In this document: positions 26,399 through 63,723 of the stretch, in pieces
Layout of the letters: every line of letters starts with the position of its first letter
How positions within the stretch are numbered: position 1 is the first letter of the stretch
NCBI GenBank assembly: GCA_002633005.1
Contig: NMRA01000404.1
Span: 352,085 to 416,084 of the forward strand
Source: Phoronis australis
Taxonomy: Eukaryota; Animalia; Phoronida
DNA length: 64,000 bases
Direction: 5' to 3'
Program-made: the position numbers and the translations under genes
Notes under the pieces: generated by a model
What the model saw: the letters and a program-made list of their open reading frames with translations, nothing else
Databases searched by the model: none
What the model was told of the DNA's origin: nothing

Positions 26399-26823
26399 TC
26401 ATACATGAACACTGCTGTCTTCCACGACACCAGGTGATGTATTGGGAAATGTCTCCAAAGAGTCACGATTCATGTTCCAATTCATCTGTGTGTCGTCGTT
26501 AACTATTGTTTGCTTCAACTTTTTTGGCATTGACAATATCAACAATTTCCAGAACACATCTTCTTTCTTACGATCAGTCGTCCCAGGCCACTTGATGTAC
26601 GACACAGATTTGAGTATACACAACAAGTTTTTATCCACATTTTTGTGCATGTCCGTGATATCTTCGAACATGATCGGAATGATCCTGTGACGAAGTCGTA
26701 ACATTTCGTGCTGGGCTTTCTGGTATTCCAAACGACACCATTCGCTTTCCACGTAATCCGTCGATACAATTAACACAGTTCGTCTGCTCTGTTCAATCGC
26801 ATGAATGATGTTGTCTGCAATAG
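26399..26823 (-). CDS. TIR domain, C-terminal exon (constant exon 3)
   Basis: Acceptor ctattgcag|[35 protein letters not shown]...IIPIMFEDI...YIKWP...FWKLL (box 3); TGA at 26399-26401; AATAAA on - at 26298-26303. Confidence 0.92.
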
Positions 26824-62800: not shown

Positions 62801-63723
62801 GCGTTCGTACGAGGCAACGGAAAAACATTATTTGCGCTAATTTTGCAGCGAAGCCGACACAAGCTAAGTTTACTGATGAAGAGAATATTCTTCTAAAACA
62901 GTTGCCTTGAATCTGGGTTGCTCTGACGCTAACTTTTGCAACTCTCTCGCATACAGCAATTATGAGTATATTAGGAACGATAGATGGACACGTGGCAAAA
63001 GACTTAGAAACATTTTAACAAACCTTGGCATAACATTTGATCTTCATTGAAAACACAAACTTTGTCGTTGGGACACTCTAGTCGACAGGGGGCCTTGTCG
63101 TCGCACAAGATTCCTTCATACCGGTGGGGACATACACAACGCGAAGTGGTGTTGGACGATGCAACACATTCGCCGCCATTCCTGCACTTAAGATTACAAG
63201 TGATGTTACACAGCTTTCCTCCCCAATCTTGTTCACACTCACATTTGGACACCAGTGTGGCTTTATTATTGTACGTGAAAGGAACCTCCAGGCAATGTCC
63301 GTGAACGCATGGGTAACCTCCACAAAGCTGGGGTCTAGTCTTCACGGTGCGCTTCCTGAAAAGCAAATCTATATCCGGGAGCTGGGGCAACGAGACGCAG
63401 CGAGATGAACACTCATAGAGCCCGACCACGCACGTGGTTCCATTACTACACACCCTTGTTTTGCATGGATAGCACAACTGTGGGAATGTGCTCATGTTCG
63501 TGGGGCGAGCCTCACCCCTGCTGACGCCAACACTTGGGATCATTTTACTTTCTTGATCTTTCACAGGGGATTGTCTATTTGTAGCGGTGCGGTTTTCTGT
63601 CATACTGTTACCTGGTAGCATAGGTTGTCTCCGTCTCCGCACGATTTCAACTCCTGTAGCTCTGAGAAGCGTCACCAAATATAGCAGTAAATGCCCGGTC
63701 ACTAATGATGTCAGAGTATTCAT
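26399..63723 (-). CDS. EGF-repeat / transmembrane / TIR receptor; model joins exon A to the constant exons (474 aa)
   Basis: join(63024-63723, 29378-29533, 28331-28474, 26399-26823) = 1425 nt, all junctions phase 1, one open frame: signal peptide, EGF-like repeats, TM, TIR. The long first intron is inferred from phase match only. Confidence 0.6.
27055..27130 (+). mobile_element. tRNA-derived SINE head
   Basis: A-box-like GTGGCCAAGTG and B box GGTTCGAGTCCC. Confidence 0.5.
28331..28474 (-). CDS. TIR domain, N-terminal exon (constant exon 2)
   Basis: ttttacag|AC...AGA C|gtaagt; box 1 YDAFVSY and box 2/BB-loop [12 protein letters not shown]. Confidence 0.92.
29378..29533 (-). CDS. Transmembrane exon (constant exon 1)
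   Basis: cttttccttag|AT...GAT G|gtaagt; (D)[35 protein letters not shown] is a TM helix with a basic stop-transfer; phase 1 at both ends. Confidence 0.85.
29803..30228 (-). mobile_element. Dispersed repeat with a tRNA-like segment; copies at about 41305-41605 and 42555-42858
   Basis: Shared gatacaaccgtgtaa...ttcgaaccc...tttaccactacaccact...ctttgacttgagcattata; A and B boxes on the minus strand. Confidence 0.7.
31290..32185 (+). mobile_element. Degraded Penelope-like retroelement (RT + GIY-YIG endonuclease)
   Basis: RT remnants [28 protein letters not shown]; endonuclease [22 protein letters not shown]; many frameshifts. Confidence 0.8.
32186..35661 (+). mobile_element. Degraded Ty3/Gypsy LTR retrotransposon with integrase before RT/RNase H (Gmr1-like) and a probable 3' LTR
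   Basis: AVTTRAQA (32525, 33045), integrase zinc finger [12 protein letters not shown] (33325), core ILSDRGT (33657), LQWKGTYEV (34180), then RNase H region [13 protein letters not shown] and VVQTDQKPL (34590-34840). Candidate LTR tgtcac(35022)...tgtaaca(35661) with TATAAA and AATAAA. Confidence 0.8.
37450..39380. mobile_element. Kolobok-like DNA transposon derivative (TTAA target duplication, 15-bp TIR)
   Basis: ttaa|aggagaatgccaccc...gggtggcattctcct|ttaa. Inside: a frameshifted THAP remnant on - ([21 protein letters not shown], from 39208) and a Cys-rich remnant on + ([24 protein letters not shown], about 38680-38815). Confidence 0.8.
39728..40467 (-). pseudogene. EGF first exon C (signal peptide + EGF repeats), disrupted
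   Basis: Paralog of A and B. The start is ACG (40465-40467) where A and B have ATG. A 4-bp insertion near 39980 splits ORFs 39970-40446 and 39705-39959. The donor CAA G|gtttgt is retained. Confidence 0.8.
40495..44445. mobile_element. Foldback-like TIR element between exon C and its upstream block
   Basis: Left atgtcagaatcttacatggatgttagcc versus right ggttgacaaccatgtaagaatctgacat; inverted subterminal arrays of ttggatgtcaaccaactaac (40575-40690 and 43795-44355). The exon B/A upstream homology resumes at about 44446. The span includes the gap-flanking duplicate. Confidence 0.75.
41678..42855. repeat. Near-identical copy of 40428-41605 across an N gap (probable allelic or assembly duplication)
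   Basis: About 1.18 kb differing by scattered SNPs and bounded by the gap at 41606-41677. Confidence 0.85.
44584..45030. mobile_element. MITE-like element related to 30240-30660
   Basis: attgcatggcgaagtcgtt versus aacgactttggcatgtaat; the same end (acgacttcgccatgtaat) occurs at 30641. Confidence 0.55.
45190..47560 (-). mobile_element. Degraded CR1/L2-like LINE
   Basis: Minus-strand RT motifs [12 protein letters not shown] (about 46150), HLYAGDTA (about 46080), [10 protein letters not shown] (about 46330); frameshifted throughout. Confidence 0.75.
47610..50450 (+). mobile_element. Degraded L1/Tx1-like LINE with an internal insertion (about 48020-49340)
   Basis: [43 protein letters not shown]; paralogous to 60700-62560. 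Confidence 0.75.
50987..51731 (-). pseudogene. EGF first exon B (signal peptide + EGF repeats) with one in-frame nonsense codon
   Basis: ORFs 51378-51731 and 50922-51365 share a frame. TGA at 51378-51380 sits at the conserved EGF Gly position ([11 protein letters not shown]). The ATG and the donor CAA G|gtttgt are intact; length 745 = 3n+1. Confidence 0.8.
52195..52405. repeat. 36-bp minisatellite, about 6 copies
   Basis: Unit ataggacaactataaatgtgtgcaatggagtttatt. Confidence 0.9.
54260..55759 (+). mobile_element. THAP-containing non-autonomous DNA transposon (PIF/Harbinger or ISL2EU-like) with a nested insertion
   Basis: 18-bp TIR aatagcggatttgcagcg / cgctgcaaatccgctatt. THAP motif [32 protein letters not shown] is split by 54561-55311, which is flanked by ggggccatc direct repeats. 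Confidence 0.8.
57310..59390 (+). pseudogene. Degraded transposon-derived integrase-like (DDE) gene, interrupted
   Basis: [22 protein letters not shown]-like, RIEFWWNIL and, after the insertion, REWNVHRI motifs; frameshifted. Confidence 0.6.
57866..59035. mobile_element. Two inverted ends of the same Helentron-type family as 22395, separated by an N gap
   Basis: 57866-58043 matches about 22395-22571; 58589-59035 is the reverse complement of about 22395-22840. Confidence 0.85.
60700..62560 (+). mobile_element. Degraded L1/Tx1-like LINE, co-duplicated with the EGF exon unit
   Basis: [25 protein letters not shown]; collinear with 47610-50450. Confidence 0.75.
63024..63723 (-). CDS. EGF first exon A, intact (signal peptide, RRRR, spacer, one degenerate and about three EGF-like repeats)
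   Basis: Uninterrupted [27 protein letters not shown]...[11 protein letters not shown]...[12 protein letters not shown]...CRNGGEC...[12 protein letters not shown]. Phase-1 donor CAA G|gtttgt at 63023; TATAAA on - at 63764-63769. Confidence 0.88.

Follow-up and report, generated by a model that had tools for sequence, protein, structure and literature searches.

A putative array of decaying first exons upstream of one transmembrane-TIR receptor tail in Phoronis australis

We analyzed a 64,000-nt stretch of the genome of the phoronid Phoronis australis (assembly GCA_002633005.1, contig NMRA01000404.1, positions 352,085 to 416,084; hereafter the window), in which three paralogous exons encoding EGF-type ectodomains, here called A, B, and C, precede a single set of exons for a transmembrane (TM) helix and a TIR domain. 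As it stands, the window holds one receptor of a known class and two dead exon copies. Our best explanation, which we put forward tentatively, is a decaying array of first exons on one TM-TIR tail, with at least three copies, of which B and C are broken, A is the sole live exon in view, and B and C probably worked until recently. Exon A likely supplies the only receptor of the window, through predicted splicing to the TM exon over 33.5 kb. Counts of exon copies hold for the 64-kb window up to position 64000, across two assembly gaps.

Three first exons and a single tail

The first-exon region comprises the following features.

60665..64000, minus strand: A copy of a duplicated block, which continues past the window edge (DNA comparison)
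63764..63769, minus strand: TATAAA, candidate core promoter of A, 46 nt before its ATG (motif only)
63024..63723, minus strand: exon A, the sole open first exon in the window (DNA comparison, translation)
58044..58588: assembly gap of 545 N between A and B, with repeats on both flanks
47568..51995, minus strand: B copy of the duplicated block, with promoter, exon, and ~3.4 kb of intron (73-88% identity, in pieces, to 60665-64000)
51774..51779, minus strand: TATAAA 48 nt before the ATG of B (motif only)
50987..51731, minus strand: exon B, a pseudo-exon in the present assembly, with ATG and donor intact (DNA comparison, translation)
44445..44542, minus strand: upstream region of C, now displaced, with 76.5% identity to 63748-63839 and TACAAA for TATAAA (DNA comparison)
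40491..44444, no strand assigned: insertion splitting the leader of C, with 28-nt inverted ends (40499-40526 and 44412-44439) and subterminal repeats (DNA comparison)
39728..40467, minus strand: exon C, a pseudo-exon with donor intact and 22/22 scored cysteines kept (DNA comparison, translation)

The original prediction for this locus proposed that each of these exons carries a start, a signal peptide, and a full EGF ectodomain, and that promoter choice could place different ectodomains on one signaling tail. The geometry it described is borne out. The three minus-strand exons are paralogous, with pairwise DNA identities of 76-82%, and each is closed by a phase-1 donor, CAAG/GTTTGT (the slash marks the splice site). 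A single TM exon and a single split TIR domain lie 3′ of the copies, and joining A to the tail exons yields an open EGF-TM-TIR model of 474 aa with GT-AG at every junction. No further TM or TIR exon was detected in the window by tblastn with the 474-aa model and 55 homologues. Word-7 blastn of the three tail exons against the window returned only 3 chance matches of 13-16 nt, and no remnant of the tail exons or of their introns was found between the copies by this method. What the window presents is a tandem series of paralogous first exons followed by a single set of constant exons.

The claim that every copy is complete, however, fails. Only one of the three exons is open in the window, rather than two or more, and promoter choice among ectodomains is precluded by the state of B and C in this assembly. 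In exon B, a TGA interrupts the frame at 51378-51380, at a position where EGF1 motifs have G, A, or P, and the Cys87 codon has become TAC (Tyr). Rescue of this stop by an internal in-frame intron does not seem credible; two weak GT-AG pairs are available, and each deletes EGF1 or linker residues. Exon C has ACG at the position of the ATG, on both assembled copies beside a gap, and a 4-nt insertion near 39981-39984 shifts its frame into a stop at 39970-39972. Even A falls short of a full ectodomain, lacking 42 nt that B has (36 of them in C), and this loss removes the last two cysteines of EGF1. In the canonical EGF pairing, the last two cysteines bond to each other, and their joint loss from A may thus be tolerated.

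Exon A otherwise reads, in order, as an ATG, a signal-peptide-like stretch, an RRRR motif, an S/T spacer, EGF1 without its last cysteine pair, a linker, EGF2-EGF3, a 4-cysteine module, and the phase-1 donor. The possibility that A, B, and C are internal exons entered through an upstream acceptor was ruled out: an in-frame TAA is found 6 nt upstream of the ATG, and the GCAG of A is not kept in B or C. In protein searches with exon A, none of 348 candidates (longer search) and none of 83 (near search) scored, and a representative protein search gave 89 matches, all at 49% identity or less, with no close paralogue. Exact matches in the protein collection were found for none of four open reading frames (ORFs) of the window.

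The three copies differ in how much flanking sequence they share. A and B have promoter, exon, and kilobases of intron in common at 73-88% identity, whereas C shares with the other copies only the exon, 13 nt of intron, and one displaced upstream piece. A TATAAA stands ahead of A and B, and a TACAAA in the split leader of C, each by motif match only; we infer that every copy may have brought along its own promoter. The insertion in the leader of C measures ~2.7 kb after removal of a duplicated contig end and a 72-N gap, and lies between the TATA-like site and the start. That gap (41606-41677) is flanked by a 1178-nt duplicate at 98.7% identity within 40428-42854, which probably represents two haplotype contig ends and creates the false appearance of part of a fourth copy of the exon at 41678-41743.

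The receptor, its class and its transcription

The constant part of the model consists of three exons.

29378..29533, minus strand: constant exon 1, with the TM helix, juxtamembrane MKLVHHF, and a phase-1 acceptor (TTAG/AT) and donor (homologue alignment)
28331..28474, minus strand: constant exon 2, first part of the TIR domain (Pfam TIR 29.3 bits; borders the same in L001-L003; reads in run X7)
26399..26823, minus strand: constant exon 3, rest of the TIR domain, a short tail, and the stop (Pfam TIR 56.8 bits; best matches mollusc EGF-TM-TIR proteins)

The Pfam cut-offs are 21.3 bits for TIR and 21.5 bits for EGF. Four of the five exon pieces score slightly below the latter (18.7-21.4 bits), and their cysteine pattern aligns with that of homologues. 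EGF domains precede the TIR domain in the model, the two being linked through the predicted splice, and a single TM segment lies between them, as judged from the one hydrophobic run in the 474 aa (sliding-window starts 234-247, peak 2.57). A donor for the TM exon at 29429 was considered and fits the homologues less well than 29378. Pfam detected no leucine-rich repeat families on the exon pieces, to which that scan was confined.

The receptor type is already known as the EGF-TIR class. The available parts of the sources list EGF-TIR as a class in oyster (PMC4346834) and report two such genes in Aplysia, with function given as unknown (PMC9334734). For the first-exon array we found no description: no title or abstract on alternative first exons in an EGF-TIR gene was retrieved, in a search that covered subscription journals thinly and did not extend to supplements.

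Several comparisons connect the window gene with mollusc members of this class. Of 115 candidates in a search with the second TIR exon, 55 proteins were recovered; the top matches with names are from molluscs (Potamilus, Pomacea, Babylonia, Gigantopelta, and Mytilus), several of them with EGF-type Pfam matches. The alignment of the 474-aa model with mollusc EGF-TM-TIR proteins runs from EGF2 through the whole TIR domain (47% for P0011, E 6e-80), and the 8-cysteine EGF1 pattern is present in 22 of the homologue proteins. The TIR intron borders are identical in all three relatives' contigs inspected (L001-L003). Metagenome scanning gave eight loci, of which five were examined; L001-L004 carry TIR exons, and none extends to an EGF exon. 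In a TIR tree, 23 rows group at 100/100 against just two Ptychodera Ig-TIR rows, with no TLR rows included, and the window row is long and unplaced inside the group.

Among solved proteins, the top matches of the window TIR are TLR TIR domains, and the Glu of its WCRLE motif aligns with that of WCHYE in TLR6 and TLR10. This Glu would be the catalytic position. Production of cyclic ADP-ribose by animal TIR domains depends on such a Glu, according to the available part of a preprint (10.64898/2026.04.20.719644).

Some further observations concern the tail and its relatives. Three ectodomain-only ORFs (P0063, P0068, and P0069), with a signal-like start, EGF pairs, and no TM, resemble the N-termini of EGF-TM-TIR proteins and could be first exons or secreted relatives. 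Seven near-identical oyster-like proteins of 1237 aa were ruled out as variable ectodomains, being alleles at 99.5% identity or more. Downstream of the TIR stop, AATAAA/ATTAAA motifs occur at 26303 and 25816, and an imperfect repeat at 25860-26230, Thr-rich on the plus strand or Val-rich on the minus strand, is possibly the 3′ untranslated region.

Transcription was assessed with three raw RNA runs matched by species label, about 18-19% of each being read, and one contig run, all aligned at 85% likeness to positions 26000-42000, which hold the tail and exon C, with A and B outside. Repeat reads dominate these alignments. Dense RNA reads on both strands fall on a repeat with a tRNA-like head, recognized by eye as resembling a short interspersed element, at 29772-30122, 41275-41575, and 42524-42824. 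In run X7, first mates on the plus strand were 1.71 versus 0 over the TIR1 bin and 0.77 versus 0.11 over the TM bin, and depth per exon base was ~6.3-fold for TIR1 and ~2.6-fold for TM. Such first mates represent minus-strand RNA, provided that the library is of the usual stranded type. The tail exons are transcribed at a low level, in one of the three raw runs; the TIR1 bin was empty in X5 and X6. Within C, the bin 39884-40417 has zero depth in all four runs, where ~10 X7 reads would be expected were C the sole first exon and coverage flat. Separately, minus-strand-type RNA at depth 1-3 occurs in bin 26000-26533 in all three raw runs.

History of the copies and competing explanations

Under the decaying-array interpretation, transcription from a given promoter would give an RNA whose cap-proximal donor is spliced to the TM acceptor, with downstream copies skipped; such skipping is suggested by the other copies having a donor and no obvious acceptor. 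The encoded protein would be a type-I membrane receptor that may signal through its TLR-like TIR domain. Divergence of the copies would have been fastest in EGF1 and the linker, with the cysteine scaffold kept and patches exchanged by gene conversion; the copies would then have died singly, C probably through the leader insertion and B through the nonsense change. Transcripts of B, if made, would now undergo nonsense-mediated decay or encode a 117-aa fragment, and C would be silent.

The pattern of change among the copies bears on this history. In EGF2-4, 16 of 16 cysteines are kept in all of A, B, and C. Exon C has lost none of its 22 ancestral cysteines over 64 changes of its own, where simulation expects 5.1 losses if the branch was 100% neutral (P 0.0024); with 75% of the branch neutral, such retention has P 0.0088, and with 50% neutral, 2.7 losses are expected (P 0.051). 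The frame is kept by three of the four indel events in the exons. Pairwise ratios of nonsynonymous to synonymous rates (dN/dS) are 0.27-0.39 for EGF2-4 and 1.8-3.1 for EGF1 and the linker. Branch counts of synonymous versus non-synonymous changes are 14 to 19 for A (P 0.027, on the purifying side), 14 to 50 for C (P 0.29, neutral-like), and 3 to 32 for B (P 0.011, an amino-acid excess), with 0 to 19 in the N-terminal half of B (P 0.0035). Informative sites are clustered into 74 runs, a number as low being reached in none of 10,000 shuffles, which points to gene conversion. To judge from these sequence comparisons, C, and perhaps also B, probably remained functional over a large part of its history, alongside the A lineage. 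A shared tail would be the simplest way for the copies to work concurrently, because there is one tail and no remnant of another.

These same data bear on an explanation that we consider improbable, in which two partial duplications of the 5′ end of the gene were dead on arrival, with only one copy working at any time, and the apparent constraint reflects conversion and small numbers. Consistent with this, the copies carry kilobases of intron and promoter, their history is mosaic, EGF2-4 of B looks neutral, and C is neutral-like overall. However, conversion would erase divergence everywhere and not just at cysteines, and C kept all of its cysteines through its 64 changes; the amino-acid excess of B lies above neutrality, and most indels are in frame.

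The absence of tail remnants weighs on another alternative, to our minds less probable still, which holds that the copies are separate genes or an assembly effect. On this view, they arose by duplication of the whole gene, and their tails have since been deleted or lie in a gap whose size is understated; or else they acted as single-exon secreted EGF proteins made by reading through the donor. The assembly is of short-read type, has duplicated contig ends, and is interrupted by gaps at 58044-58588 and 41606-41677, and Gigantopelta (P0011/P0039) and Patella (P0018/P0073) each have two EGF-TM-TIR genes on contigs of equal length, and so probably on one chromosome. Against this alternative, a 3.1-kb tail is too long for a 545-nt gap, no trace of tail exons or introns remains, and all three copies retain the donor. 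Secreted forms could arise where read-through meets stops 6, 21, and 7 residues past the donors of the three exons, and the ectodomain-only ORFs of relatives would fit them, but a gene caller would equally produce such ORFs from a first exon.

A different possibility is that the locus is live, with at least two open first exons spliced to the tail today, either because further copies lie past 64000 or because the lesions of B (or C) are private null alleles of the sequenced animal. The A block does continue beyond the window edge. Exon B has just one stop and one cysteine change, with ATG, TATAAA, and donor intact, and its N-terminal half shows the amino-acid excess given above. Dead exons are compatible with a live array, as the four pseudogenes among the 13 first exons of UGT1A illustrate in the available part of PMC3584141. 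The scallop Pecten maximus may offer a parallel: isoforms X1 and X2 of LOC117325601 (XP_033737835.1 and XP_033737836.1; P0038/P0059) are identical over 207/207 residues of TM-TIR, and match at 62/93 in the preceding EGF module. The X1 module is closer to those of Argopecten (76%) and Ylistrum (72%) than to X2 (67%), and the duplication of the module may hence be old. This isoform pair is a lead only, a parallel at the level of annotation. Other isoform pairs were rejected as switches, those of Babylonia and Patella being plain N-terminal truncations and that of Haliotis differing by a short unrelated start. Nevertheless, only one of three exons is open; three independent lesions affect C, among them the ACG on both assembled copies, and it has zero reads; no supporting junction is among the joints listed for 26000-42000; and protein searches with A recovered no second open ectodomain of its kind. 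We regard a live locus as unlikely. The broader proposal that mollusc-type EGF-TM-TIR receptors diversify their ectodomains through alternative paralogous 5′ exons, with this locus a live case under diversifying selection that has further open exons upstream or open B alleles in the population, seems to us equally doubtful.

Several points also count against the decaying array that we favor. The predicted 33.5-kb intron crosses two gaps (A-B and B-C), and no EGF-to-TM joint is among the 15 listed of 100 in 26000-42000, so that the A-to-TM splice stays predicted. No reads derived from A or B appear on the 84-96% identical parts of C in 39884-40417, weak evidence at a depth of ~2.6-fold. TATAAA is a motif match, and A itself is short of part of EGF1 (14 codons). 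Cysteine retention in B is non-significant (1 of 22 lost versus 2.9 expected, P 0.17), its EGF2-4 branch looks neutral (pN/pS 1.10, the ratio of nonsynonymous to synonymous proportions), and the high dN/dS of the linker falls in a poorly aligned stretch. Branch counts are weakened because gene conversion blurs branch assignment, and the selection tests, 9 to 15 in number, are uncorrected and use three unrooted sequences. Finally, three of the four RefSeq isoform pairs compared have no EGF-module switch, and Pecten X2 lacks a signal peptide, is an automatic annotation, and falls on another branch of the TIR tree.

Neighboring features and comparison with known systems

Elsewhere in the window, a multi-exon gene on the minus strand (8200-18250) has GKAP-domain matches at 10731-11042 (E 5.7e-9) and 11280-11687 (E 0.005) and could serve as a synteny anchor; it presumably resembles DLGAP5/HURP. 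On the plus strand, 160-567 holds the end of a hydrophobic ORF that looks by eye like an exon of an MFS-type transporter, with no Pfam match at E 0.01. An 80-bp tandem repeat occupies 23574-24456 in ~11 copies at 96-99% identity. The first intron contains mobile-element remains at 31679-34356, with a weak GIY-YIG match (31961-32383) and a Tf2-like SH3 match (34057-34353), and 98.7% duplicates about a single N (32181-32701 and 32699-33219), which are probably an assembly overlap. Between B and A, a weak THAP-domain match on the plus strand (54240-54497, E 0.006) is possibly a DNA transposon fragment.

Diversity of TIR receptors in invertebrates is usually put down to whole-gene duplication, and a first-exon array would be a second route. 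The locus may display both the birth and the decay of such an array. If the broader proposal of a live array were true, this would be a variable/constant receptor of innate-immune type distinct from protocadherins, UGT1A, and sDscam, and the scallop gene might be a parallel case. The fast change of EGF1 would point to a ligand-facing region in an uncharacterized receptor class.

Compared with mollusc EGF-TIR receptors (Gigantopelta XP_041360277.1 and Babylonia XP_076440381.1), the window gene has the same signal peptide, 8-cysteine EGF1, spacer, EGF pair, TM, MK(L/I)VH.F..EDD motif, and TIR intron borders, with TIR identity up to 66%. It differs in its shorter spacer and tail, an extra 4-cysteine module before the TM, and the tandem first-exon array. 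Pecten LOC117325601 belongs to the same receptor family; its TM-TIR tail, identical in the two isoforms, is preceded by one or the other of two paralogous EGF modules (67% identity), with the switch just before the TM. Its X2 form, however, contains a single EGF pair, lacks a signal peptide, and may reflect an internal alternative exon or a partial model.

The likeness to clustered protocadherins on which the original prediction drew holds in part. Protocadherin alpha and gamma clusters also have large tandem exons for signal peptide and ectodomain before three small shared exons, as given in the available part of PMC7811963. In contrast, the variable exons of the window encode EGF domains and no cadherin repeats, the TM lies in the constant part rather than in the variable exon, and there are three copies, one of them open, instead of a dozen or more. 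UGT1A likewise has dead copies among its alternative first exons (13 first exons, four of them pseudogenes; PMC3584141, in part), but it encodes an enzyme and has nine live exons with demonstrated splicing. Chelicerate sDscam, also an invertebrate receptor, combines tandem cassettes at its 5′ end with alternative promoters, and differs in having Ig domains, no TIR, and about 50-100 isoforms with RNA support (both in the available part of PMC9258826). By analogy, the Phoronis locus may work, or may once have worked, like protocadherin, UGT1A, and sDscam loci, while being a member of none of them.

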